From Terriglobia bacterium (lineage in GTDB: Bacteria; Acidobacteriota; Terriglobia; Acidiferrales; UBA7541): DNA of 64,000 nt. Where the stretch lies: the NCBI GenBank assembly GCA_963695545.1, contig OY968796.1, forward strand, positions 3,136,001-3,200,000, given 5' to 3'. Below the pieces are notes generated by a model that was given only the letters and a program-made list of their open reading frames with translations, did no database searches and was not told the DNA's origin. This document shows, piece by piece, positions 1-23,099 of the stretch. The translations under genes and the position numbers were made by a program. Position 1 is the stretch's first letter. The number at the start of each line of letters is the position of its first letter.

Positions 1-1379
1 CCTGTGCCTAACAGCTTTCTGTCCAACTCCTTGATCTCGGTCTCCCGCGAAGAAATCGCCCTCATTAAAGCGGGCAGTGGCCCCTCTTGTGCCACTGCTT
101 CAGCCAGCCGTGTGAGTTCCGTCTCAACTTCAGACCTACGCACCCGAACATCATCAACCTGACCTGACATTGCCTTGAGCTGACAATCCAATTCGAGTTG
201 GAACTTGACGAGTACATAGTGAATCGCCTCTGGCTGGAGGACGGATTCCTGAAGGCCAGCCAGAAGGTACGGCTCGATTCTGTCATTTCGTTCACGTAGA
301 GTATTTGGGCAGGTGCCCCGGTTAAAGTTCAACGGACAGCCCCAACGTGGATGGTTATTCTTGCCATGCCCAGTGATGATGCGCAGCTTGCCTCCGCACT
401 CAGCGCAGACCAGAATCCCAGAAAAGAGATAATTGGATGAAGCGCTCCGCGACAATAGACCATTGGGCCTGCCCTGAGCGTAGACTGCTCGCATCCGCAG
501 CAACCGATGCTGGACCTTTTGCCAGAGTTCCGCTGACACGATCCTTAACTGCGGAGCTTCTCGAATCTTCCATTCCTTTTCTGGACGTGGCCGGGCAACA
601 CGTCGGTTCGTCCCTGGCACTTTCACAAACTTCGCTTTGTTCCAAATCACTCTTCCGACATATCGTTCGTTGTACAGCATTTCTCGGACAGCAGTTGGAC
701 ACCATCCAGCAGCCCCACGACCCTTCCGAGGTCTCGGCGACTGAACGTTCTGGGCGTTCAAAGTCTTCGCAATACGTTTCAGTGAATAACCAGACGCACT
801 GATCTCGAAAATGTTTCGCACTACGTCTGCCTCGGACTCATTTATGACCATGCGTTTCCCATCTACGGTGTCTACGCTGGCATACCCATAGGTGCGCCCA
901 CCCGTATGGCAACCGCGCAGGAAGTTTCCTTCGAGTCCACGATGAGTTTTTTTCGCCAGTTCTTTAACGTAAAGAGAATCCACCAATCCATGGACGGTCA
1001 TCTGAACGTCAGATTGTTCTGAGTGTGTATCGATCCCCTGTGAAACAAAGATGACACGCAAGCCCTGAAACCGTAGATTCTCTACCGTACTCATTGCTTC
1101 GGACTGTCTTCTGGAGAAGCGGCTTGTGTCGTCCACGAGAATTATGTCGAACGGTCTAGGGCGGGAATATGCGGCATTCAACAATCTTTGAAAGGCCGGG
1201 CGGTCTGAACCGGATCCACTAAGCCCTTCGTCAATGTAGATGTAATCGTCGAGAACATGGAATCTATTCCCTTCGGCAAACTCTCTGCATTTCCGAACTT
1301 GGTCATATGGAGAAAGGTGGCTCTGTTTATCAGTCGAGATGCGACCGTAAACAGCACACCGATTCATCGCCTCTGTCAT
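1..1379 (-). CDS. Large serine recombinase/integrase (3' end beyond window)
   Basis: Manual translation from ATG 1379/1367: MTEAMNRCAVYGRISTDKQ...DEGLSGSGSDRPAF...VDDTSRFSR...GGRTYGY...YLFSGILVCAECGGK (zinc ribbon)...coiled coil ELTRLAEAVAQ. Start and end segments share a frame; probably missing from the ORF track because there is no stop in the window. Confidence 0.92.
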   Translation of the reverse strand, partial: MTEAMNRCAVYGRISTDKQSHLSPYDQVRKCREFAEGNRFHVLDDYIYIDEGLSGSGSDRPAFQRLLNAAYSRPRPFDIILVDDTSRFSRRQSEAMSTVENLRFQGLRVIFVSQGIDTHSEQSDVQMTVHGLVDSLYVKELAKKTHRGLEGNFLRGCHTGGRTYGYASVDTVDGKRMVINESEADVVRNIFEISASGYSLKRIAKTLNAQNVQSPRPRKGRGAAGWCPTAVREMLYNERYVGRVIWNKAKFVKVPGTNRRVARPRPEKEWKIREAPQLRIVSAELWQKVQHRLLRMRAVYAQGRPNGLLSRSASSNYLFSGILVCAECGGKLRIITGHGKNNHPRWGCPLNFNRGTCPNTLRERNDRIEPYLLAGLQESVLQPEAIHYVLVKFQLELDCQLKAMSGQVDDVRVRRSEVETELTRLAEAVAQEGPLPALMRAISSRETEIKELDRKLLGT

Positions 1380-4817: not shown

Positions 4818-5989
4818 ATGAAGCCTCGGCCGGGGCGCATAGAACTTGTGCAGCACATGGATAACGTCGAGATCAAGGTCGGGCAGGACACAGTCAAGCG
4901 GGAGTTCATGATCAAGGTCACGGCGTCAATGCCGGCACGGTCAAGCCCAAGGCGCAGAAATGGCTATGGCAAAATCGTGTTCCCGCGGGTGCGATCACTT
5001 GGGGCGTCGGCAAGCCCGGCAACGCCAAGAGCCTGTGGGCAACCGACCTCGCGGCGCGTGTATCTTCGGGCGCGGATTTTCCCGATGGCGCGAAGAACGA
5101 GGGGCGCGAAGAAGGTGCTGATGTACTGCGGTGAGGACGACTGGAGCGCACCGTAGTGCCGAGGCTCATCGTCGGGGCTAACCTCGACAACATCACCCTG
5201 CTGGACAACCAATCGTTCGACGTGTTCGACAAAGAATACAACCGCGTTGACCGACGCTCCATCGACCTGGCCAAGACTGCGACACGCTGAACCATCTGGT
5301 ACACGACCACCCGGAGATCGCGCTGCTGATCCTCGATCCCACCACCGGGGTTTACGGCAGTAGAAATACAAATCACGACAAGGACATGCGCCCGATCATG
5401 AACGATCTGCGCGATATGTGCGAGAAGCGCGGGCTGACCATCGTGGGGATCACGCATACCAACAAGCGGGGGAGGCGGCGGCGATAGACCAAATCCAAGG
5501 CGCGTCGAGCATCGCTGGAGCGGCCCGCGGCGCATGGCTCTTCACCCGCGACCCTGAATCCGACGATGAGCACGCGCATGTCATGTCGTGCATCAAGTCC
5601 AACCTCAGCGACAACCATGATGGGCTGAAGCTGTTGACCAAGGCTGTGAAGGTCAATGATGAAGTGGGTGATCACCCGATGATCGTATGGGGCGAGAGCA
5701 CCAAGATGCAGGCGGACGAGGCGAACCAAGCGTTGAAGGAGAAGCGCGAGACCAAGGGCGGCAAGCGGACGCCTCCAAAATCGGCATCCTCGCGATGCTC
5801 GGCGAAAAGCCGATGCTGTCCAAGGACGTATACACCGCACTGGAAAAGCAGGGCTTCTCGGGCGAGACCGTGAAGCGGGCTGCCGCGGAACTGACCAAGG
5901 AGTTCCAAATCCATCGCAAGCAGCAAGGCGGTCGCTGGTACATGGTGTTGGCGGAGCACCTGTATGAGTTCGAGCAGAAACGAGGCTGA
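4818..5989 (+). pseudogene. AAA_25/RepA-like helicase with C-terminal winged helix, multiply frameshifted (may begin ~4381)
   Basis: Stitched frames give Walker A GKPGNAKS, YCGED, Walker B IALLILDP, IVGITHTNK, QIQGASSIAGAAR, and C-terminal MLSKDVYTALEKQGFSGETVKRAAAEL...GGRWY. Confidence 0.8.
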
Positions 5990-8808: not shown

Positions 8809-9477
8809 TCACCATTTTCTTACGCGTTCGCGATAACGCCGAATGACACGCTTGCTCACTTTGCCTTCGGCATCCTCGATTAGCTCTCGCATGGAATGTT
8901 GCGCTGCAAAGCATCCATAGATTGCGTGCCTGCCCGAACTCTCGTCGATAATTCTGTGCAGTTGCTTAGCAGAGAACGGGCGAAACCCCAGCAGCCCCCG
9001 CGCTGCAATCGGGACTTCGGTCTTGAAATCGTTCGCTGCCAAGAACGCCTGAATCGCACCATCGCGGGCGATGGCCCCGAATTCCTCATTCTTGCCCGAT
9101 GCACGCAGCTACATCCCAAGCAGAGGCGTACGACGATTCTTCGTTCCATTTCAACGCTTGAATGTGGTCGATGAAGCCGTGAGGATTCTCATCGCGGTGG
9201 ATTTTGACCGGAATTATCGCTTTTCCGAGGGCGAGTGCAAACCCGGTTTCTTGGTCTGTCCAGTCTGATTCAGAGAAGGCCTTGGTAAGCAGCGGGATGA
9301 AAATGTCGCACTCGCGCAGAGCCTTTCTAATCTCGGTGCGCCAGCCGGGCAGACGGGACGGATGTCTTCGTGGGCCAGAAACGCGTCGAAGCCAAACTCT
9401 TCAAGACCCGCCTTCAGTCCTCCGGCGAGCTTTTTCGCCTTATGCGAGTAGCTTAGAAAAATGTTTAGAGGTTCCAT
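8809..9477 (-). CDS. TIR-domain protein (~222 aa after correcting homopolymer indels at ~9345-9355 and ~9095)
   Basis: IFLSYSH...AFLAHEDIRP...WRTEIRKALRECDIFIPLLTKAFSESDWTDQETGFALALGKAIIPV...PHGFI; the catalytic Glu (WxxQE) is present. Confidence 0.85.
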
Positions 9478-9478
9478 G

Positions 9479-10253
9479 TCATTTCTCGGGCTCCGCAGGT
9501 AAGACCGCGTTCTGCGCCGAACGTACGGCTTTCACATAAATCACGCCATCTGCGCCGTTCGGTAATTTCCCTTGATAGGAGTGCGGAACCGTGACCAAGA
9601 ACGCCTGACTACGAGGAGTTACAGCCGTCTTGTGACTGGCTTCAATGATCCTGAAAAGCCCCTCGCAGTATCCTCCGAGATGGTTGCAGTACGCTTCTAG
9701 TTTCATGTTCAGTTCCCGTTCCTGCACCGCCTTTTGTATCTCCACTTCGTCGAGCGGAGCACGTTGTTCAGGGGTCTTGGCATCCAACGGCGGAAAAACA
9801 CGGGCAATGAATGCGTCAGTGGAACCGTCGTGCAGCGTGACAATCACCCCGGCAAACTGGTGGGACAAATTTCGATACTCCTGAATCTCGTTGACAGTCG
9901 GGTCGTCGTCGAGGGCCTTGACGAGTTCGTCGTGCCGCCCTTTCGTCACAATACCTTCCTGCTTGCACCGTCTGTATGCCGTGCACAGCAATTCAGCAAG
10001 ATGGCGAAGCTGCCAGAGAACGCCTGCGAAATGCGCACGGAACACAGTCGCGTCCTCCTGAAGCATCTCACGTTAGCCTGCGAGAACGGTTGAGTCGCTG
10101 TGTGTGCGCGCTTGCTCCCAGCCAAGCACATCGCACCCGTGTCCGCATAAACCCTCACGTACGCTGCGTGATAAAGGCAGACATTCAGCGTGTGCCAGAC
10201 CTCGGCGACCATGCCGTCGAAGTCTTGATTGGGAGTGAACGTACCCTGTCCAT
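9479..10253 (-). CDS. Helical hypothetical protein with HEPN-like RNxxH motif (indels at ~10250, ~10132, ~10075)
   Basis: Reconstructed MGQGTFTPNQDFDGMVAEVWHTLNVCLYHAAYV...EMLQEDATVFRAHFAGVLWQL...IQEYRNLSHQ; stop lies 1 nt before the TIR ATG. Confidence 0.5.
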
Positions 10254-10369: not shown

Positions 10370-11909
10370 CAAGCTAATGGAGCGGAGGAGGAACGCCGTC
10401 GCAACTGGATCGAGATCGACAGCTTGAACGCGATCTTCAGTTGACTGCGCTCGTTCGGATACGGCAGCACTTCCCACTTGAGTGCGGCTCGTAGAATCCG
10501 TTTCGTCCGCCCGTCGCCATAAAATCCAACTGACGCTTTCCGGCTATCGTCCTTAAAGAAATCACAGCCTTCCGAGGTTAGCAGTTGTTTTTGTTGGGCA
10601 CTACTACGCTGTACCTCAGTTTTCCGAAGCGGCGATCACGGGTCAGAAGATGAACGTTTCGGGCGTCGAAGACCCTGCCATCCGGCCGCCGGAATTTTTC
10701 CGTGGGGTTCGTGAAGCCGCAAAATGACCCATTCTAACGACTGGTAAACAATTCCGAGTTCATTTCCCTTTGGATCGGCATAGGCGACGAAAATGTTGTA
10801 CCCCCCCTTTCTCATCTCTCGGCTTGCAGGCTGATCAATAAGGTAGCCGCTGAACCCGTGTGGGTTCTACCATCCGTAGAACGCCTGATTGGGTCAGCCC
10901 AACGCAGAGTGCAGCCGCGTGTGAGCGGATTACCTTCTGTGCATGCTCGGAGCCGCAGACAGACGCCTTGACCTTCGTACCAGCCGTACTGCCAAAACAA
11001 ACGCAGCCTGCAATGTATTGCCGAAGGACAAACCGTAAGCAAATTCGGAACTGCCGAGCGGACTCGCCAGCCATTCAAAGGCGACAACCAAATTGCGTGC
11101 CTCAGCAAGGGAAATCTCCTTGACGGTCGCGTTTTTGAAATCAGAGGCTAATGCCATTTTTTCGGCAAGGAGCGGATCGGGTTGTTCTGCCATACGTTCG
11201 CGGTTCACGCGCTGGAAGGCTTTGCCATTTGCTGGATAATCCTCAAAGTCTTTGGAAATTTGTTTCTCGCACTCCCCAGCGTGCTTCGCCAAGTTCCTCA
11301 AAGCAAGAGTCAGCTTCTTGGTGATCGTCGGGCTGAGCCGACTGCGAAGCTGGGTTACTTTTTCCAGCTTCTCCCTACGGCTGGCCGATTCGAGGTCGCG
11401 AATCAACTCTGACGCAACGAGATTCACGTCCGGCTCCGAAATTACGCCAGTCGGCGTGACGATCTCTCTGATCTCGCGAAGCAAGCCGCTGTAGTCAGTT
11501 CTCCGTTTTTCTCTCGCGCCTGAACGAGAGCCTTTTCAAACGTAGCATCATCAACGAGGCGCGCGATTCTCTGCCACTTCGCGCTCTGATCCTTCGATAT
11601 ACCGATTTCCTCTAGTGTGGGCGGATTGGCGGTCGGTCTGCTCGACCGCCTTTTGACTCCATCCTTACGCGGTCGTCCTTCACCCCTTGTGCCGGGGTTC
11701 TTTTCCATTTCAAGCAAGAGTTGTCCTGTCCTGCGCTCGGCACGAATTCTTATCTCCGCTGCCTGATTCTGGAGTTCAAAGTCGCCCGCCTGCTTGGCGT
11801 AAACGCGAACGGCTTCCGCTTTGTCACGGATCGCCTTCACCTCATCGACACGGTGGGCGGCGGCGAGCGCACGTCGGGCGGCGTCGTAACGAATGAGCGC
11901 GACAGTCAT
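10370..11909 (-). CDS. Mom-family (GNAT-like) DNA adenine-modification protein fused to an N-terminal helical domain; several indels, 3' end approximate
   Basis: Stitched: MTVALIRYDAARRALAAAHRVDEVKAIRDKAEA...VKEISLAEARNLVVAFEWL...YGLSFG.YIAGCVCFG...LTRGC...AATLLIS...YNIFVAYADPKGNELGIVYQSLEWSFCG...LKWEVLPYP(K). Confidence 0.72.
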
Positions 11910-11980
11910 ATTCAGAGAATTCTCTGGCAGCAAAGGACAACGTCAAGCTACGAGAGCCGTGAAGTGGTATCTTTTTCGGC

Positions 11981-13017
11981 ATGACATCGGACAGGCGCAC
12001 GGTTTTCGTAGTGGGAGCGGGTTTCTCCGCTGATCTTGAATACCCGCTTACTTCTCAACTGCTGCCCCGAGTCAGAAATCGTTTCGACAAAGCGTTTTCG
12101 ACGCAGTTTGACGAGGTGGTCAGATTTCATCACCCCGGATGGGACAGGCGACGGGCTACGCTTCCCGACATCGAACAACTGTTGACGGAATTGTCTGCAA
12201 ACGAAGAGTTGCTGCCTGCGGTTCGTTCGGACTCCCGTTCGATAGCGTTACTCTCGAACGGTTTCGGGAGGAATTGCTGCGCCTCGTTGCCGTTTGGTTC
12301 CACGAAATCCATCAGAAACGCTCTTCGGCGGGCGACAGATCATTGGATCGCTTTCTGAAGCTTATAGGCGAATCAGAGAATCCAGTGGTGATCTCTTTCA
12401 ACTGGGATTACGAGTTGGACGAAGCGTTGTTCGGCAAGAATGGCAAATCCCCAGACCTAACCCGCGAAAGTTACGGGCTAAACACGGGAAAGCTCGCGAG
12501 TCCCGCGTTGCTGAAACCACACGGATCACTGAATTGGTATCCCTCTCGTTCCGGCAAGCACATACAACGTGACTTGCGATTACGGCTGTGGAGATCATCT
12601 GGGTCGGAGCCGTCCATGTACTGTTTCATGCGATGGCGGGCGGTACGCTCGACGCAGGGACGGCGATATGTACCGTGGATTGTTCCACCGACACACTGGA
12701 AACGATTCGACCATTCGATGATGAAACACATTTGGAAGCGGTGTGTGGATACTCTGAGCACCGCTCGTCGAGTGTATTTTCTGGGTTACTCGCTGCCGCT
12801 TGCGGATTGGCATTCCAGATACATTTTTCGCTGTGGGTTCCATAATCAAATTGAAGGACTACCGCTGGCGGGTGGAGGGCGTGCGAAGCCAACCCGATTG
12901 GCAAAGGTCACGGTGGTGAACCCGGATAGCGTCGCCGTTCAGAGGATAGAAACGACGTGTGGAGTGAAAGCCCGCTGGATCGACGACACGATCAGATCAT
13001 GGCTACGATCCCGTTGA
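11981..13017 (+). CDS. SIR2-like (SIR2_2) NADase-family protein (single frameshift at 12229-12230)
   Basis: VFVVGAGFS, ISFNWD, LKPHGSLNW, IVPPT, FLGYSLP.AD motifs; adding one G joins the two ORFs. Confidence 0.85.
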
Positions 13018-13338
13018 TTGAGCGTATTTCGAGCACGATGTGTCATCGGTTTTTGCTTGTCCCTGCCCTGCGGCTGCGTCCGACCTCGATCTGCTCGCGT
13101 TTATTTAACCTATCTTCCAGCGTCACCGTAAGCTGCTGATGTCAAAGGGCGAATTTCGCCGATTTTGACAGCCCAAATTTCATCCGTTAGATGAACATTA
13201 CGGGAGCCGGGCGATGAAACCGTTTTCGGCTGAGAATAATCTTCATCTCTCTACTGCTTCGCTCGCTGGAAACTGACCTGACCGGGGTTTTTTGTACCAG
13301 CGGGAGTGAGAGAGAATTCACTCTGGAGGGAAGCTGGT

Positions 13339-13617
13339 ATGCCGATGAGGAGATACAAGCCGGAGCAGATCGTCACGCTGCTGCGGCAAGTTGAAGTTGA
13401 AATCGCCAACGGAAAGAGCACCCCACAAGCCTGCAAGGAAGCCGAGATCACCGCGCAGACCTACTACCGCTGGCGGAAGGAATACGGCGGCCTGAAGTTG
13501 GATCAAGCGAAACGCCTCAAAGAGTTGGAGCGGGAAAACGCCAAGCTGAAACGGTTGGTGGCGGAGCTTTCGTTGGAGAAGCAAATTCTGAAGGATGTGG
13601 CAGAGGGAAACTTCTAA
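13339..13617 (+). CDS. IS3 transposase OrfA
   Basis: YKPEQIVTLLRQ...QTYYRWRKEYGG...LKELERENAKLKRLVAEL (HTH + leucine zipper). Confidence 0.93.
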   Translation: MPMRRYKPEQIVTLLRQVEVEIANGKSTPQACKEAEITAQTYYRWRKEYGGLKLDQAKRLKELERENAKLKRLVAELSLEKQILKDVAEGNF

Positions 13618-14483
13618 GCCCTGAGCGGCGACGTAGCGCGGTGGAGCATGCACGCGAGAGCTACCAAGTATCAGAGCGGCATGCCTGCCGGTTGCTGGGG
13701 CAGTGGAGAGGGACACAACGCTACGAGGTGATCCACCGAACGGATGAAGACGCGCTGACGCGAGACATCGTGGCGCTGGCCAGCGAGTACGGGCGCTTCG
13801 GCTATCGGAGGATCACGGCGCTGTTGCAAGCACGGGGCTGGTATGTGGGCAAGGATCGGGTGCAGCGGATCTGGCGGCGCGAAGGGCTGAAAGTGCCGCA
13901 GGGACAAAGGCCGCGAGGAAGGCTGTGGTTGAACGACGGATCGTGTGTTCGTCTCCGGCCGGAACGAGCCAACCATGTGTGGAGCTACGATTTCGTGAGC
14001 GCGATGACCCACGACGGCCGAACACTGCGAATGCTGACGCTGATCGACGAATACACGCGGGAGTGCCTGGCGATCCGCGTGGCGAGAAGGCTGGGGAGAT
14101 ACGAAGTGATCGAAGCGCTGGCGGACGTGATGCTTTACCGGGGAATTCCGGAACATATTCGCTCGGACAACGGCCCGGAGTTCGTGGCCAAGGAGCTGAG
14201 GAGTTGGCTGGCGAAGGTGGGAACGGGGACGCTGTACATCGAACCGGGAAGCCCTTGGGAGAATGGCTACTGCGAAAGCTTCAACGGGAAATTGCGCGAT
14301 GAATGTTTGAACGGAGAGATTTTTTACTCGCTGAAGGAAGCGCAGATCGTGATCGAGAAATGGCGGATGGTGTACAACACGCTGCGTCCGCACTCAGCGC
14401 TGGGCTACAGGCCACCGGCGCCGGTGGCCTGTAGCCCCTTGGTGCCGCCAATTCTCGGTTCGCCGTCGACGGCTGTGATGTAG
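13614..14483 (+). CDS. IS3 transposase OrfB (DDE), reached by -1 frameshift
   Basis: WSYDF, IDEYTRE, SDNGPEF, PGSPWENGYCESFNGKLRDE, RPHSALGY. Confidence 0.95.
   Translation, partial: LSPERRRSAVEHARESYQVSERHACRLLGQWRGTQRYEVIHRTDEDALTRDIVALASEYGRFGYRRITALLQARGWYVGKDRVQRIWRREGLKVPQGQRPRGRLWLNDGSCVRLRPERANHVWSYDFVSAMTHDGRTLRMLTLIDEYTRECLAIRVARRLGRYEVIEALADVMLYRGIPEHIRSDNGPEFVAKELRSWLAKVGTGTLYIEPGSPWENGYCESFNGKLRDECLNGEIFYSLKEAQIVIEKWRMVYNTLRPHSALGYRPPAPVACSPLVPPILGSPSTAVM
14402..14437. repeat. Perfect 36-bp palindrome inside IS orfB
   Basis: GGGCTACAGGCCACCGGC|GCCGGTGGCCTGTAGCCC, no loop. Confidence 0.95.
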
Positions 14484-14523
14484 ACTCTCTCATTCACCGT
14501 GGTACAAAAACTCGGGCTGGTCA

Positions 14524-16336
14524 AGAGCCACGGCGGGTTGCCGATGATGAAGTCGAATTGTTGCTTCAGCATCGCGGGTCTGTAGCTGTTGCGGATGATG
14601 AACGACCAGATGGTGTTCTTCTCCTGTCGGATCAAGTCCGCCAACTTTTCGGTGAAAGACCAAAGCGCGTCAACAATCGCTGCATGCTCAAGCAGTTTGT
14701 ACAATTCGGGAACATTGACCGTCAGATACTTGTTTAGTGTCGTTCTGCTTTCCTTCTTCGATTTTGCGTGCGCCTCGGCGACCGTCGCGCAGGCGGCAAT
14801 CGCGTCGTCAAAAAGCTCCGGTGAGTGGATAAGCCAGTCCGGCATCGCGACCGTCTTTTCATTCTTCTCGCCGAACTGAATTTCGAAACCGCTCAACTTC
14901 TCGTACAGATTCTGCTCGACTTCGCGCGGAAGGAACAGCGAGTCCGCCAGATACACGGGGATGTTGACGGGCTTGCGTGCGGCGTTCACGAGCTTGCCGA
15001 GCGCGAGAACGTATGTGGCGCGGGAGATAGTAACCGCGACGGGGTGGATGTCGATGCCCTGAACCTTGCCGAGTATCATTCGCAGCTTGTCGTTGTCAGT
15101 GCCATCGGGATTGTGGTTCAGGAAGTGGTGGATCGTGGCACGCAGGAAGCTGCCCGAGCCGCAGCTTGGATCGAGCACCGCTTTGTAGCCGTGCTTCGGT
15201 AAAAGCTCGTCCACGATGCGTTCGCACAGCCAGTCGGGCGTGTAATACTCGCCAAGGTCGTGACGATCCTTGGGGTCGATCAACTGCTGGTAGACGCCCT
15301 TGAGCACGTCCTCCTTGATGTGAGACAGGTCATAGTCCGCGAGGTGTGAGAGGATGCGCTCCCACATCGGGGCGAGAATCTTCTCGGCTTCCACGCTGCG
15401 AATCCAGTGAAAGAAGTCATCATCCACGAGGTTCGCGAGCCGCTTGGACTCGAAGTAGCGACCCGAGAGCACATCCTTCGCGACCTGCCTCAGGTTCGCG
15501 GTGCTCTTGCCCTGCGACAGGGCAGCCCAAATCAGCAGCCGGGCGATGCTCGCGAGATAGGTGTGCCGCAGGAACAGGTTCTCAAGCTCGGAGATTTCCT
15601 GCGCGGTCTCTATGTCCCGCACCGCCGTGGTGTCCTCGGTCAGGCGACCGTAGGTGACGGTGAGGTACCGCTGCCACGTCTCGAACGCGAGCTTGGCTTC
15701 CGATCCGCCGCTGACCTTTGCCCACGCACGCTTGAGCGCAGCCATGCCCTCGTGGAACTGGAAGCTCTGGCTGCCGAACTCAAGCTGGAACTGCTCGGCG
15801 GTCGCCTCTACCTGCTGCTCACGAAACAGCAAACTCGTGAGCCACAGCCAAAACTCGCCCAGCGTCTCATCTGCCAGCTTGAAGTCGCTTAGTTCGTCCA
15901 GCACGACGTTCTCAGGCGTCGGCTCCTTCCCCTCGGGAAGCACGGGGCGGTAGCGAATCCAACGGCTGCCGTCCGTCGCTATCGCCAGCAGTGGACGCAG
16001 CGCGTTTCTCTTTTCCTTCTGCCAAGTCCCGGCGACGTACTCGCAAAGCTGACCCTTCGCCTCTTCGAGCGTGGCGGACAGAGACTTCTCAAACTCGATG
16101 ATGGCGTTGCCGTAGTAGGCGTCGGCGCGTCCTCTCTTCTGTCCCACCGCTTGGTCGATGCGGATCAGTTTCTCGACCCCACGGGAGAACTCGGAGACGG
16201 CGTTCGTGCCGGGGAAAAGCTCTGCGATTACGGCGGCGAAGCGCGACCGCTTGGCGGCTTCGTTGGGGAGTGTCTTGACCTCGCGGGCGTAGGCCCGCAA
16301 CGTCTCCTTGACCTTTGGCTCAAGCGTCTCAGGCAT
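14524..16336 (-). pseudogene. Type IIG-like fused restriction endonuclease / N6-adenine methyltransferase, truncated by the IS
   Basis: N-terminal GRADAYYGNAIIEFEK nuclease motif, GEYYTPDWL, VLDPSCGSGSFL, FIIGNPPWL, then the IS end; the C-terminal region is absent. Confidence 0.88.
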
Positions 16337-16421
16337 TGGCGTGAATGATAGCAGCGAGGGCAAAGAAAAGGGGTGCATCTTGCGATGCTCTTACGGCATC
16401 AGCAACTTTTCTTGTTCCGCT

Positions 16422-17892
16422 TTAGCTGGAGGCGAGTCGAAGTTTTTCTAACAGCTTTAGAAGAGCTAGCGTATCCAGAGCACAATAGTCGAGCAGAGCT
16501 TTCTGAATTCTCTCGCGCTCGCCGCCATCAAAGCAGCCGCGCAAGAGCGCCTCCCACGCCAGTCCGGCTTCCTGCCCGTTCGCAACCGTCATCCCGTCGT
16601 AGCTCATCTCAGGCACGAGAGCGGGCAGCACGGACTTGAGGCTGTACGATCCGGCGAACGCGGGGTGGTAAACATGTGCCCGCACGATGGGCAGTAGATC
16701 GAACAGGCGGTCTTGGATTGTTTTGATCTGATCCGCGAACCGAGGAAACCAAGTCGCGAGTTCCGAAAGACGCTTAGATTCGAACGACGAATACACGACG
16801 ATGCTGCCGCTTTCGCCGAGTGCAGCGCAGAGGGAGCTAATGAACTCGCGCCGAGGATCGCTGCTACCTGCGGCAAGAAACTCGTAGTGCTCTGGCTCTG
16901 CGCCCGCTTGTCGCTGCACATGGACTGACCATTGAAAGGGCAGGTGGTCGTAGGGTCGCATTCCCGCGAACGGCGGAATCGCCCGATTCAGAGTCTCGAA
17001 ATCGGCGAAGTACAACGGGTAGGTCAACCCGTCCAACAGATCGCGGAGTCCATCGCTGAACCACGGTCGTCCCGTCTGCACGCACGTCGCAGCACGGCGT
17101 TGAATGTCGCTCAACTGGAAATCGTGAGGGATGTCCCGAATTGACTCGACGCCAATCTCCTCAAGCGCATCGACCGCGCTGGCGTGGATGCGCGGCAAAA
17201 ATCCGATGTGATCCTGCGAGCGCGGCGGGTTGCAGTGATCGAAAAATTCGCAAGTGACGGGGGCGGTACAGTGCGCACCAATTTTGATGTTGGGAGGAGT
17301 CGGCTGCTCCAGAATCCGAAATTCCGACCGTAGCTGCAACGTCAGCTTGTGCTGCAACCCCTCGACTCGCCGGGCCACATTGCGGATGCGAAAGAATTCT
17401 CGCGGGTCGATTTCACCGCCCGGATAAACATAGTTTCGGTTGATGTGAGCCAGAGATGCCGAAGCCATGTCCAGCCCTGACCGCGAAACCACGCGATACT
17501 GGATCGCTACGTCTTCGAGGTGGTGATCCTTGAGATCGGTCGTTGACTTGACTTCAATCAATTTCCAGCGACCGTCGAGCCGTCGCTGTAGGACGTCCAC
17601 TTTCACGAGCACGTTCTTGTGCTCAAACACCCCCTCGAAAATCGCTGGCACGTCCGGGTTTGCCACCAGTTCGCGAGTTGCGCGGATCGCTTTGTCCAGC
17701 CTGCCGTCACTCGGAACCTCGACCCCGCCCGGAAAAAGCTGCCGGGCAAGCAAGACCGACCTGCCGCCCCTGTTCGATGATGGCTTGATCAGCAGCGTCC
17801 GGCGCGACTGCCAGTTCTGGTTCGTGGACGAGCAGATACAAACGTTTGGCGCACTGGCGGCCAGCAATAACTTTTGTTTTGCTGATTCTCAT
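16422..17892 (-). CDS. DUF2779-type RecB/Cas4-like nuclease (frameshift ~17750)
   Basis: ISKTKVIAGRQCAKRLYL, VDVL...LIEVKS, HC..PVTCEFFDHC, ADFET, LPFQWSVH, GSYSLKSVLP, YCALDT. Confidence 0.85.
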
Positions 17893-18293: not shown

Positions 18294-18623
18294 CTAAGCC
18301 TGCGCCTTGACCCTGTGCATATAGAGCAGGAGCGAGCGGAACCGTTCGTATGCTTCCGCCCGCATCTCCTTATCAGCCCACCCCTCGAAGAACATCTGCT
18401 TGAGTTTCCCCTCGGCGGCAACCGACCTGTCCTTCGCTGTCTCGTCCGCGTATGTGCACGAGAAGTACTCGTTGGCGGCGAACTCGACCATGGTCTGCGC
18501 GAGGTCGATGTCGCGGATCATCTGCTCGTCGCCGATCAGCCTCACGGTTACCGTGCCGTCAGGGGCAATCTTCGTCTCGATCTGCTCGTCGAGCGTCGTC
18601 GCGACCTGCTTGTCGTCCGCCAT
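18294..18623 (-). CDS. Hypothetical protein, paralog of the adjacent gene
   Basis: GGAG RBS; LDEQIETKIAPDGTVTVRLI. Confidence 0.65.
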   Translation of the reverse strand: MADDKQVATTLDEQIETKIAPDGTVTVRLIGDEQMIRDIDLAQTMVEFAANEYFSCTYADETAKDRSVAAEGKLKQMFFEGWADKEMRAEAYERFRSLLLYMHRVKAQA

Positions 18624-18665
18624 CTCTTCTCTTTCTCCCTATCGAATTGAGGTTCCGCTTCCTTC

Positions 18666-19203
18666 CTATACGGTGGCGTACATGTTCCGGCGAATCCAGC
18701 GGCTCAGCAGCACCAGCAGCACCGGGGCAAATACGAAGAACGGAGCGATGGCGAACACCAACGCCGCACTCTCGGGGTTGAGACTGCTGAGGCGTTCGGG
18801 AAACACCTTACCGAGTCCAATCGCGAAAATAACTTCGGCGGCGACGGAGCCGATGAAACCGCTGACCATGAACCAAATCGACTTGGCGAGCGTCTGCCAC
18901 ATACCGCCGTGGTCTTGACGCCAAGTGCTCAGCTTTCCCGCTCGCTGCCACTGCCGGACGCTGTGCCAATGGCAGATGAAGACCATCCAGATCGCGCAGG
19001 CAAGCGGTCCCGGTAAGGAAGTAGAGCACGCCCCAAATCCGCATATCGGCACCGCTCAACGCGAGAGCCTCGATGCCGACTGTAAAAAGAAGAGGAGCCG
19101 ATAGTCCAAACATGAGCAGGGTGAGTAGGAACAGGATTTCCGACAGCACCCATTTCAGGAATTCGCGGGCTGTTCCGGCGATGTCGATAACCATTGGCTC
19201 CAT
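18666..19203 (-). CDS. Multi-pass membrane protein (frameshift ~19020)
   Basis: Two overlapping hydrophobic ORFs (18808-19203 and 18666-19052); GGAGG RBS. Confidence 0.55.
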
Positions 19204-19257
19204 GGACGTTTCCTCCGGTACGAGACCCCTTCGCGATAGTTCTGGCGTCGGAAGATG

Positions 19258-19896
19258 TCAGGCGCATGCAGCCGTAGCGTGCTGAGAACGGGCAGCGGCG
19301 TACACAGTCCCAACTGACAGATTCATTTCGTTGGCTATCCACCGCCACGAATGCCCGGAGGCTCGCAGTGAGTTGATCCGGTCAACATCGACAGCTTTTC
19401 TCGGTCGCCCGAGGCGTTTGCCCTTCGCCCTAGCATTTCGCAATCCTGCCCGCACGCGCTCAACTATCGTCTCTCGCTCGCTTTCCGCTACCGCTGCGAG
19501 AACGTGAAAGACAAATTTGCCTGATGGAATCGTCGTATCAATTTGCTCGATCATTGCCACAAAATTGATCTTCAGCGCGTGAAAGGTCTCAAGTGCTCGG
19601 CACAGGTGTGAAACTGAGCGCGAAAAACGGTCGAACCGCCAGACGACGACCACGTCGAATCTCCGCGCATGAGCATCCGCCATCAAGCGATTCAGTTCGG
19701 GTCGGGAATCCTTCCTGCCCGAGACGCCCTCGTCCACATAGCAGTCAAAAATATCCCAGCCCCGTCGCTGACAGTACTCGCGCAGTTCTCGTGTCTGCAT
19801 CGCCGAGTCTTGCCCGTGACCTATCGTCGAAACCCGAGAATACACGGCAGCTTTGATCTTTTGCGGGCCGCAATCGCGAACAACCTGCAATCCCAT
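19258..19896 (-). CDS. Small serine resolvase/invertase with C-terminal HTH
   Basis: VYSRVST, DEGVSGRKDSRPEL, VWRFDRFSRS, ERVRAGL...GKRLGRP, SWRWIANEMNLSVGTV. Confidence 0.92.
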   Translation of the reverse strand: MGLQVVRDCGPQKIKAAVYSRVSTIGHGQDSAMQTRELREYCQRRGWDIFDCYVDEGVSGRKDSRPELNRLMADAHARRFDVVVVWRFDRFSRSVSHLCRALETFHALKINFVAMIEQIDTTIPSGKFVFHVLAAVAESERETIVERVRAGLRNARAKGKRLGRPRKAVDVDRINSLRASGHSWRWIANEMNLSVGTVYAAARSQHATAACA

Positions 19897-21193: not shown

Positions 21194-22012
21194 TCAGGCT
21201 TTCTTCGCCTTCCCGGGAGGAACGAGCGCGACCGAGGCCTCGGTGGTGAGCAGCAGGAATGTGAACGTCTCCTGCAGATACAGGCGCACAGCGGTGTCGG
21301 TGTGGCTGAGATAGCCGATCGAGACGTCCTGTCCGATGTGCAGGTCGAAATCTCCGCCGCGCGTGGTCAGCACGAAAGCGCCGCTGATCGCGGGCGCCCA
21401 GATGATGGCATCCTTCACGAGCCGCTTAACATGCTCGAGTACGGGATATCCGTGGTCGCTGGTTTCGGCGAGCGCCGTGTACGCGTCCGCGCCGAGCAAC
21501 ACCGAGTACGGGCCATTGACGCCCACCAGACGAAGTTGGCTCAGGCCTTGCGCAATCGCGTCCGGGTATTCCAGTACGTTTGCGGGGAGCGTCATGATCG
21601 GATTGCTGGTGCCTTGACGAATGCCGCCGATACCCGCGGCGGTGTAGCGATCGAAAATCGCGCAGTCTTCGGCGAAGGCGATTTTCTGCGCGGCGTCCTT
21701 CGCGGGTTGCCAATTCGCGTCGTTCGCGCCGCGCTCAACATCGTCAACGTCTTTGCGCTCCAGCTCGAAGGGAACACGCAGCTCGACCAGCGCCTTAACC
21801 TCGCGTTGTCTTGCAAGGACGCCGTCCGCTGGTGGCGTGATCGTCTTCAGGTGGCCCGTGCCCACGCCGGAGAGACCTGTGCCCGCCGCGGGGTGCACGT
21901 CGACGACGCGGCGACCGGCGATGTAACGCTTGAACGTGCGCGAAGTTTCCTCTTCGATTTGCGCCCACGCGGGGTCGGAAATGGGAGCGAGTTCGCGATG
22001 CAGGTTATTCAT
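21194..22012 (-). CDS. Family 1 encapsulin shell protein (Linocin M18-like)
   Basis: MNNLHRELAPISDPAWAQIEEE...GRRVVDV...ELRVPFEL...RGGDFDLHIGQDVSIGY. Confidence 0.96.
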   Translation of the reverse strand: MNNLHRELAPISDPAWAQIEEETSRTFKRYIAGRRVVDVHPAAGTGLSGVGTGHLKTITPPADGVLARQREVKALVELRVPFELERKDVDDVERGANDANWQPAKDAAQKIAFAEDCAIFDRYTAAGIGGIRQGTSNPIMTLPANVLEYPDAIAQGLSQLRLVGVNGPYSVLLGADAYTALAETSDHGYPVLEHVKRLVKDAIIWAPAISGAFVLTTRGGDFDLHIGQDVSIGYLSHTDTAVRLYLQETFTFLLLTTEASVALVPPGKAKKA

Positions 22013-23099
22013 CTTGGCTTTCTCCTTTGAGAGAACCGATGTCGAGCGAACCATCGTTGCTCGGCGAAGTTGTTGGCGCGGTTTCGTCCGCTGACGGTTC
22101 GGCGGAAGGCGCCGCATCGGCAGCCCCGTCGTCGCTCACGTCGTCAAGAAATGTCGCGGACGGCACGAAGAAAAGATTTCCGGTGACCGCGCGGCTGAAG
22201 TCGAGCAGCCGGTCGTAGTTGCCCGGCGGGCGGCCGACGAACATATTCTCGAGCATTAGTTCGATCGTGCGGGCCGAACGACTGTAGCCGATAAAATAAG
22301 TCCCGAATTCAGCTTCGGTGGGCCGGCCAAAGGGCATGTTGTCGCGCAGAATTTGGAGTTGTTTGCCGTTCTCGAAGATGATGTTGAGCGAGCTGTGCGA
22401 GTTGCTCGGCTTGACGGATGCGTCGAGCTCGATATCGGAAAGTTTGTGGCGACCGATGATCCGCTCCTGCGCTTCGACGGGAAGCGCATCCCATCCGGCC
22501 ATATCATGCAGATATTTCTGCACGATCACGTAGCTGCCGCCGGAGAACGCGGCGTCCTCTGCGCCGATCAGCACGGAGTCAACCGCTTCCTGGCCCCGCG
22601 GATTCTCCGTGCCGTCGACGAATCCGATGAGATCGCGATCGTCGAAATAACGGAAGCCGTGCACTTCGTCCGCGGGCGTAACCGAATCGCCGATGCGCGC
22701 CATAATCTGCGTCGCGAGCTCGAAGCACAAATCCATGCGCTTCGCGCGAATGTGAAACAGCAGATCGCCCGGCGTGGATACCGCGTGGCGGTCACCGGAT
22801 CGAATCTCGCGGAATGGATGAAGCTCTGCCGGTCGCGGCGAACCAAACAAGCAGTCCCACGCCTCCGATCCGACGCCCATGATGCAGGAAAGGCCGGCTT
22901 CGAGATCGCGCATCTCCACGGCGCGAACCACCGCGGCGAGGTCCGCGGAGAACGAGCGCAGCGCGGAGCGACTCTCGGAGCCCGGCTTTATGGTCACCAC
23001 CAGGAAAATTGCCGCACGGGTGAGCGGCGCGGAAACCGGCTGCGCGAGAGCGCTCAAACCGGCTGCGGCGTTCTGTGTGCTCTTCGGATCGGGCTCCAT
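22005..23099 (-). CDS. DyP-type peroxidase with encapsulin cargo-loading peptide
   Basis: GFVDGTENP, ILRDNMPFG; C-terminal DGSLDIGSLKG; 8-bp overlap with the encapsulin gene. Confidence 0.96.
   Translation of the reverse strand: MEPDPKSTQNAAAGLSALAQPVSAPLTRAAIFLVVTIKPGSESRSALRSFSADLAAVVRAVEMRDLEAGLSCIMGVGSEAWDCLFGSPRPAELHPFREIRSGDRHAVSTPGDLLFHIRAKRMDLCFELATQIMARIGDSVTPADEVHGFRYFDDRDLIGFVDGTENPRGQEAVDSVLIGAEDAAFSGGSYVIVQKYLHDMAGWDALPVEAQERIIGRHKLSDIELDASVKPSNSHSSLNIIFENGKQLQILRDNMPFGRPTEAEFGTYFIGYSRSARTIELMLENMFVGRPPGNYDRLLDFSRAVTGNLFFVPSATFLDDVSDDGAADAAPSAEPSADETAPTTSPSNDGSLDIGSLKGESQDE

Follow-up and report, generated by a model that had tools for sequence, protein, structure and literature searches.

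The gene studied here, part of a mobile element of a soil bacterium and lying on the minus strand from 11909 to ~10370 of the window (the whole 64-kb stretch of DNA that was analysed), encodes a helical leader shared with phage adenine methyltransferases that is fused to a Mom-family GNAT domain. The initial annotation had taken it for one gene in pieces whose C-terminal half was largely missing from the open reading frames, and frameshift-aware alignment bears this out. The motif pieces that it quoted were all found in this interval, spread over three frames, and the single gene, broken by 7 single-base indels, is collinear with four intact relatives at 67-76% identity. The two-part anatomy first described captured the leader and the Mom domain and missed the ~75-aa helical linker and the ~40-aa FQRxIRE extension that lie between them. 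The parts of the gene are as follows.

11919..11946, minus strand: sigma70-like promoter TTGACG-16-GAGAAT, 9 nt short of the ATG, with a probable near-leaderless start
11484..11909, minus strand: leader module, 142 aa (phrog_33995, pLDDT 88); the leader stretch of the quoted pieces, 11909-11484
11260..11483, minus strand: helical linker of ~75 aa, found in the fused family only, limits approximate
10440..11259, minus strand: Mom-family GNAT with the pre-GNAT FQRxIRE extension (~40 aa) and five to six probable assembly indels
11082-11071, minus strand: AFEW, with EW at the positions of Mu H58/Y59
10925-10914, minus strand: LTRG, with the equivalent of R111
10785-10771, minus strand: AYADP motif, with the equivalent of D149
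10752-10741, minus strand: IVYQ motif
10467-10456, minus strand: LPYP motif
10370..10439, minus strand: C-terminal tail, low confidence, stop imprecise owing to the indels

The frame shifts are placed near 11485, 11018, 10926, 10828, 10722, 10609 and ~10450 (six -1 and one +1) in three of the four alignments; the alignment to the fourth relative stops earlier and includes 6 shifts only. Zero in-frame stops were placed in the window gene by the alignments to intact relatives. Near-identical short-read contigs contain one extra base at 10927 and at 11018, matching the missing bases predicted from the alignments, and another at 12233, inside the adjoining SIR2-like gene. These contigs, which come from four runs of a single study, show 0-3 other differing letters per 150-340 bases; none of them spans the whole gene, and the indels seen are part of a set with 14 more beyond them. 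Because the contigs restore both positions, the breaks at 10927 and 11018 are probably assembly errors, and we infer that the window gene is broken by consensus errors, its island having poor coverage. A protein of ~510 aa is most likely intact in the population, the window copy only looking broken through sequencing errors. That the family is real and the window copy a decayed pseudogene strikes us as the least probable of the readings considered. It would account for seven indels in 1.5 kb next to other broken island genes, for only 2/7 breaks being seen restored, in contigs of other samples, and it has a precedent in naturally inactivated copies, the 488-aa members of the P0390 cluster without a Mom core. 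However, the near-identical contigs show about one gap per 1-3 substitutions, which is too gap-rich for natural decay, as decay yields far fewer gaps relative to substitutions. Similar scattered single-base shifts were present in 5/11 genome-collection copies examined (at most 9, in L009; of the shifts counted against the reference P0001, three for L002 and two for L009 are P0001's own), and L002 is a single open 501-aa frame. Frames of at least 250 aa cover 22-30% of the window between 4 and 14 kb vs 85% genome-wide, a shortage that is local, and the fusion gene is single-copy in the window's genome (G000).

The indels were also considered as a possible trace left by modified bases. Where the base is known (10927, 11018 and 12233), all three indels lie inside SASNY pentamers, against a background of ~0.3 per base, as read by eye; they fall outside homopolymer runs. 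For 10 further deletions with an inferred base, an SAS motif was obtained for all best options in 2, for some in 2 and for none in 6, the background being 0.35-0.40, and the base inference was wrong at both sites with a known answer, which makes this a weak test. In this underpowered comparison no clear enrichment at the Mom motif was seen and the idea was left unsupported.

The fusion itself is not a stitching artefact, because 113 of the best 120 longer leader homologues carry the Mom domain in a single frame. They were taken from 1195 matches of a leader-only search limited to longer proteins. The intact fused relatives are mostly 500-515 aa long, in one open frame, and the 7 of the best 120 homologues without a Mom domain are shorter (280-374 aa). 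In an AlphaFold model of the fused protein, built with 49 intact members (pLDDT 73, pTM 0.44), the N-terminal half is helical and the C-terminal half alpha/beta.

As judged from profiles and from the predicted fold, the C-terminal half is a Mom-family GNAT, as had been proposed from its motifs. The Pfam family PF25680 scored 65-76 bits in 7/7 intact relatives (cut-off 27.1) and 14.1 for the broken window fragment alone, phrog_1384 matched with E 1.3e-27, and Mom was the top match in a viral library search (E 5e-12). With the Mom region, residues ~260-475 of the fused protein, the top hit of the profile search against the PDB was Mu Mom (8BV8, E 2.4e-4), and Foldseek with the P0004 model again placed it first (8bv8_A, E 6.6e-9, target TM 0.65; next GNAT 9e-4). 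An insertion at Mu residues ~175-209 is reported to be required for activity; the fused proteins span this region in the 8BV8 profile alignment and the model has helices there, at low similarity.

According to Silva et al. 2026 (PMC13219725), Mu Mom takes glycine from Gly-tRNA and attaches it to adenine within SAS motifs. This chemistry, with a charged tRNA as the donor for a DNA modification, was not solved until 2026, in the case of Mu. That work classes R111, S124 and R151 as essential residues; H58, Y59, D149 and Y159 are important ones, and H58A strongly lowers activity whereas R151A abolishes it. Among 108 full-length relatives of the window protein, R111 is Arg in 108/108, S124 is Ser in 107/108, D149 is Asp in 108/108, and the position of Y159 is Tyr or Phe in 96/108. 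The position of H58 is Glu in 108/108 and that of R151 is Arg in only 19/108. The window copy has R, T, D, Y, E and K at R111, S124, D149, Y159, H58 and R151, respectively, and its Thr at the S124 position adjoins an indel. The Glu at H58 and the variable R151 mark the fused Mom domains as a distinct subfamily. The fused family belongs to the Mom profile family but has neither the His nor, as a rule, the Arg that Mu Mom relies on, and we do not class it as a Mu-type 6-NcmdA enzyme.

The E/W pair at H58/Y59 is present in 117 and 116 of 120 standalone Mom-like proteins and in 80 and 77 of 80 viral members, and the H-Y pair is retained by Mu and 4/5 cultured-phage Mom-like proteins. The fused (SH-aLRT 99) and standalone (98) domains are sister groups on one EW branch (100), distant from Mu, in a quick tree in which Mu is a long branch and alternate standalone matches of at least 235 aa were included. 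The alignment of fused and standalone EW Mom profiles reached hhalign probability 100 over 252 columns, including FQRxIRE. Since H58 is replaced by Glu throughout and R151 is mostly lost, the chemistry may differ from that of Mu Mom. One reading is that of a common fold with another chemistry: the EW subfamily would use another donor (aminoacyl-tRNA or acyl-CoA), base or motif, and the modification would not be 6-NcmdA. The near-universal E/W pair, the single branch far from Mu and the common FQRxIRE extension speak for it. However, R111, S124, D149 and mostly Y159 are retained in the EW subfamily, and the loss of R151 is not diagnostic, as the cultured-phage Mom-like proteins are also without it. 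We consider this reading unlikely, though it is the strongest rival to a Mu-like enzyme.

Compared with Mu Mom (PDB 8BV8, PF25680, phrog_1384), the fused family is alike in the GNAT fold, in R111/S124/D149, in the HTH-like insertion site and in the C-terminal YP motif, but differs in its ~18% structural identity, in H58->E, Y59->W/Y and a variable R151, and in ~260 extra N-terminal residues. The standalone EW Mom-like proteins (P0270-P0389, phage f2b1 QIA28539 and 80 IMG/VR loci), which are the sister of the fused Mom domains and have FQRxIRE in common with them, contain no leader in the chain; L094, L096 and L097 are the only cases with a leader gene immediately ahead of them. Mom-like genes outside Mu are already known: they are reported from phage and bacterial genomes and in endonuclease fusions (PMC7824862), from small marine elements (10.1101/2025.08.03.668216) and from operons under Aca control (PMC13551039). 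The jumbo-phage Mom-REase fusions (PMC7824862) also place Mom in a multidomain protein; there the partner is an endonuclease, whereas the present family has a non-catalytic helical leader, joined in one lineage by a methylase. We found no report of leader-Mom or leader-MTase-Mom proteins in the literature searched (Iyer et al. 2009/2013 and the Silva supplementary figures lay outside that search), and provisionally regard both architectures as new.

The N-terminal part was said to resemble leaders of phage-type methyltransferases, and its partners agree with this. The window leader (N-terminal ~125 aa) matches phrog_33995 with E 2.8e-12, no Pfam family was found for it, and its family comprises 9,514 clusters at 50% identity. 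Of 150 listed representatives, 108 are at most 280 aa long. Among the 113 scanned, a methylase was recognised in 21 (7 Dam, 7 MT-A70 and 7 N6_N4), and one further protein each carried a 2OG-Fe(II) oxygenase or MgsA_C; HAP1_N and TSC22 (one each) were below the cut-off and were taken as spurious. Among viral leader ORFs, MT-A70 or Dam was present in 10/14. The survey of partners that had been suggested therefore returned the expected methylases, but most representatives (88/113) had no recognised partner. Those partners that could be identified are almost all adenine-type DNA methylases. The phage orphan adenine methyltransferases (Dam PF05869, MT-A70 PF05063, N6_N4 PF01555) have the same 140-aa leader, 45-58% identical, with a SAM-dependent methylase in place of the GNAT, and occur in viral contigs, among which no Mom fusion was seen. 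By these comparisons the leader is a portable helical module common to several unrelated adenine-modifying enzymes, very common and as yet unnamed, and shared by three unrelated methylase classes.

The predicted leader (pLDDT 88) combines three long helices with a flexible, GRP-containing basic loop and a short unit that resembles a helix-turn-helix. A relation of this C-terminal unit to the ParB/KorB-type HTH (PF17762) was considered; in a shallow comparison against 29 chromosomal ParBs the hhalign score was 10, inside the shuffled range (maximum 18), and gave no signal. Phage methylases fused to a ParB-type HTH are known (PMC4738411), and a link between them and the leader was not found. No convincing structural relative emerged, the fold searches returning generic helical bundles (best Z 7.9), and a sequence search of the PDB gave no match. 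DUF3102 (PF11300) was indicated at lead level only (Atlas score 0.81, 98/256 features), and the 25 families listed when 111 leader proteins were scanned do not include it. DNA binding might be read from the basic loop, from the HTH-like pattern and from the partner enzymes, but stays a guess because the leader is without a fold match and without ParB-HTH similarity. Among its possible roles, tethering or targeting the enzyme to DNA comes closest to an even chance; repression of its own promoter, limiting a toxic activity, is a distinctly weaker candidate, and an interaction scaffold weaker still. Two other arrangements were noted. In the viral contigs L015 (9860-11742) and L021 (9749-11648) tandem leaders occur, a partnerless copy (no Pfam) lying directly upstream of a leader-MT-A70 fusion, and in P0185 a 2OG-Fe(II) oxygenase and DUF4326 are fused ahead of the leader, from which the leader may also serve base-oxidising enzymes.

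The initial annotation had explained the architecture by a swap in which Mom replaced a methyltransferase domain. This direction is not supported. The changes that can be traced inside the fused clade run the opposite way, a methylase being inserted into the fusion or replacing Mom; most leader representatives are without a recognised partner, and unfused leader and mom genes exist side by side. All Mom-fused leaders fall in a single clade (SH-aLRT 99 in one tree, 93 in another). Inside it, the N6_N4 methylase fusions L084 and P0122 share a branch (support 100) with L003, L008 and L077, which are Mom fusions, and forced monophyly of the Mom fusions was rejected only marginally (p-AU 0.046, for a group named after the first tree). 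By eye, L084 retains a degenerate copy of the promoter of the Mom cassette. In L008, L012, P0390, P0408 and P0410 a DPPY methylase of ~230 aa (phrog_24333, E 9e-35) stands between linker and Mom; an example of this triple fusion, 719 aa long, is encoded at L008:10001-12157 on the plus strand. In the same 90% cluster as P0390, 488-aa members keep leader and methylase, run into the HQRLIRE extension of Mom, and terminate in residues that correspond to the Mom C-terminus read in a shifted frame. Accordingly, the Mom core of these members has gone, through deletion and frameshift. The order that can be traced is leader-Mom, then leader-MTase-Mom, then leader-MTase. The triple form was seen in a single cluster and, among five genomes checked, was present in one, twice. 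The three forms make a natural series with ready-made controls.

A second route is suggested by L094, L096 and L097, where a solo leader gene overlaps the start of a separate EW mom gene; such unfused operons show how neighbours might fuse. These operons (L094:1825-3329, L096:4196-5972 and L097) belong to elements integrated at tRNA-Leu or tRNA-His; that of L096 consists of an HTH_17 gene, the solo leader and the EW mom, on an element that also has an integrase and a Prim-Pol gene. In the Mom tree, L094 and L096 branch among the standalone proteins and are not the immediate sisters of the fused clade. The linker was compared with the tails of solo leaders, P0194 being set aside as a fragment of the fusion itself, since a match would have proved a fusion of neighbours; the best scores were 8.2 forward vs 6.4 reversed (hhalign probability 2%), with no homology emerging. 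Leader and mom as a general gene pair were rejected, as a leader lay within 5 kb in 0/80 viral EW-Mom loci and a Mom in 0/17 viral leader loci. The original joining may have been either a swap or a fusion of neighbours.

The fusion gene travels as a cassette with its own promoter-like motif. The layout TTG-N3-17-[CG]A[CG]A[AC]T, a pattern written after viewing the data, was found in 47/57 distinct upstream regions, vs 0.07 in shuffles and 5/1283 host ORFs; the 57 regions belong to 54 Mom fusions and to L084, L094 and L097, the last three being without the full motif. It ends 6-13 nt ahead of the start codon, and a Shine-Dalgarno-like word is present in 11 upstream regions. Leader, linker and Mom are all under purifying selection in the 10 usable pairs (median dN/dS 0.09, 0.16 and 0.12, respectively; unsaturated pairs from 47 genes).

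In the window, the island begins with a large serine recombinase (left edge) and ends with a resolvase near 19.9 kb; its G+C is 56.8% vs 60-61% around it. Its recognisable genes, and defence cargo adjoining the fusion elsewhere, are listed below.

1..1379, minus strand: large serine recombinase, island left end, 3' end ~290 bases past the window edge (match to L119:17712-19379 with Resolvase, Recombinase and Zn ribbon)
4928..5938, plus strand: C-terminal portion of a primase/helicase-type protein known from related elements, matched with frameshifts (across four frames, at 33-43%, with an L092 ORF)
9214-10066, minus strand: frameshifted TIR-domain gene and 195-aa ORF, downstream of the Mom fusion
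11981..13017, plus strand: divergent SIR2-like gene with a single indel, at 12233 (the SIR2_2 match, E 0.006, stays under the cut-off)
14405-16378, minus strand: type IIG RM-like methylase/endonuclease
16422-17867, minus strand: DUF2779 gene
19258-19896, minus strand: resolvase
L042:6304-9160: TIR-short pAgo
L037:5200-8095: Sir2-HerA
L044:5408-8559: NsnABC
L064:5102-6475: ApeA-like gene

The SIR2-like gene belongs to the variable cargo and is no conserved partner. Contigs of runs X1 and X3 contain the TIR gene and the 195-aa ORF and diverge at 10228, which indicates that the cargo changes at the 3' edge of the Mom cassette. Within 13306-16378 of the window, a transposase-like pair, which we take to be IS3-like, abuts and seems to truncate the 3' end of the type IIG RM-like gene. 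No tRNA gene was found in the 64-kb window, and the best candidate for att repeats, a 15-nt match inside flanking genes, was rejected.

A non-Mu element had been proposed, and the neighbourhoods agree. No head, tail or lysis families were found among 142 neighbour ORFs from 11 loci, and of the 32 loci of at least 12 kb, a tyrosine integrase is present in 18, a primase/helicase in 13, a resolvase in 10, SRAP in 9 and one or more mobility markers in 26 (serine-recombinase and resolvase matches can cross-match). tRNA genes, for nine amino acids, occur in 18/43 loci. We take the islands to resemble phage satellites or integrative mobilisable elements with defence hotspots (P4-like, PICI). Like P4-like and PICI satellites they have an integrase, a P4-type primase/helicase, tRNA integration and variable defence cargo; unlike these and cf-PICI, they have no recognised helper-hijack or packaging gene among ORFs of at least 170 aa within 10 kb. 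The integrase and primase/helicase expected of satellites occur among the islands at the counts given above; in the window itself their place is taken by a serine recombinase and by a broken gene of primase type. The SRAP (HMCES-like) genes of L011, L031, L034, L044, L062, L064, L070, L075 and L082 lie, as over all loci, usually just upstream of the fusion and on the opposite strand; SRAP may handle abasic sites arising from modified bases.

All 12 of 12 genome-collection loci of the fusion are from Acidobacteriota. Out of 401 genomes of the phylum, G000 alone held the full-length fusion; with a profile of the Mom subfamily, 3/401 genomes of the class gave a match, G000 included. Some genomes have several copies, with four contigs in G766. 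Among 50,697 cultured-phage records none covered 80% of P0004, a viral scan with the L096 Mom alone gave no match, and neither did plasmids, searched with the standalone P0270 only.

The defence neighbours vary (type IIG RM, TIR-short pAgo, Sir2-HerA, NsnABC, ApeA-like), and islands so rich in defence genes raise the question of whether the fusion is itself host defence cargo, its modification being a self mark for an island nuclease or a poison for incoming phage DNA. A self-mark role has been proposed for the jumbo-phage Mom-endonuclease fusions (PMC7824862), and among the relatives P0365 has an HNH repeat and P0384 an endonuclease VII. However, no nuclease family recurs beside the fused gene, the commonest recurring neighbours being primase/helicase, integrase, SRAP and resolvase, and P0004 and P0390 match none of the PADLOC models. 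We regard the defence reading as quite improbable.

Our preferred reading, which we hold with slightly more confidence than doubt, is that the protein is an orphan anti-restriction DNA acyltransferase working like Mu Mom. The GNAT domain would transfer an activated acyl group to adenine in double-stranded DNA, as glycine is transferred from Gly-tRNA in Mu, and the acylated adenine would block many restriction enzymes. Carried with its own promoter on integrase/primase islands of Acidobacteriota in which no virion genes were found, the cassette would modify the DNA of the element through low or transient expression, cloaking it when excised, replicating or transferred and blocking restriction upon arrival in a new host. 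Mobile elements are reported to bear orphan DNA modifiers (PMC12707154), and Mu Mom is reported to protect against >20 restriction enzymes (PMC7261163). Overexpression of Mu mom is lethal according to the same source; the stand-alone promoter, with no Com-like control seen, speaks against a Mu-like reading. Also counted against it, no route of transfer was recognised for the elements, nor an att site in the window. In contrast to the Mu com-mom operon of a transposable phage, the fused gene has its own promoter directly before the ATG and resides on islands without virion genes found. Candidates for host tolerance are the non-canonical -10 box and the leader as a possible repressor.

The family offers many natural Mom variants, with a changed active site and a home outside virion-forming phages. 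It makes testable whether Mom-like enzymes produce other base modifications, how a chromosome accommodates a modifier that is normally lethal and is driven by a promoter of its own, and which role the leader has. A bolder proposal, to which we give little credence, is that the leader is a general 'writer-docking' module by which mobile elements aim interchangeable DNA modifiers at their own DNA. The Acidobacteriota EW Mom, with a rebuilt active site, would then make a non-Mu modification in virion-less elements, and one lineage would both methylate and aminoacylate adenine in one chain.

Three further observations concern the surroundings of these genes. Viral EW-Mom domains occur in open frames of 575-753 aa that would hold other fusion partners (L162, L197, L202 and L205). 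The island of L002 contains, besides the fusion, a second, unrelated standalone Mom gene (18377-19270, minus strand). Just right of the island in the window, at 21194-23099 on the minus strand, lies what we take to be a dye-decolourising peroxidase and encapsulin-like pair.
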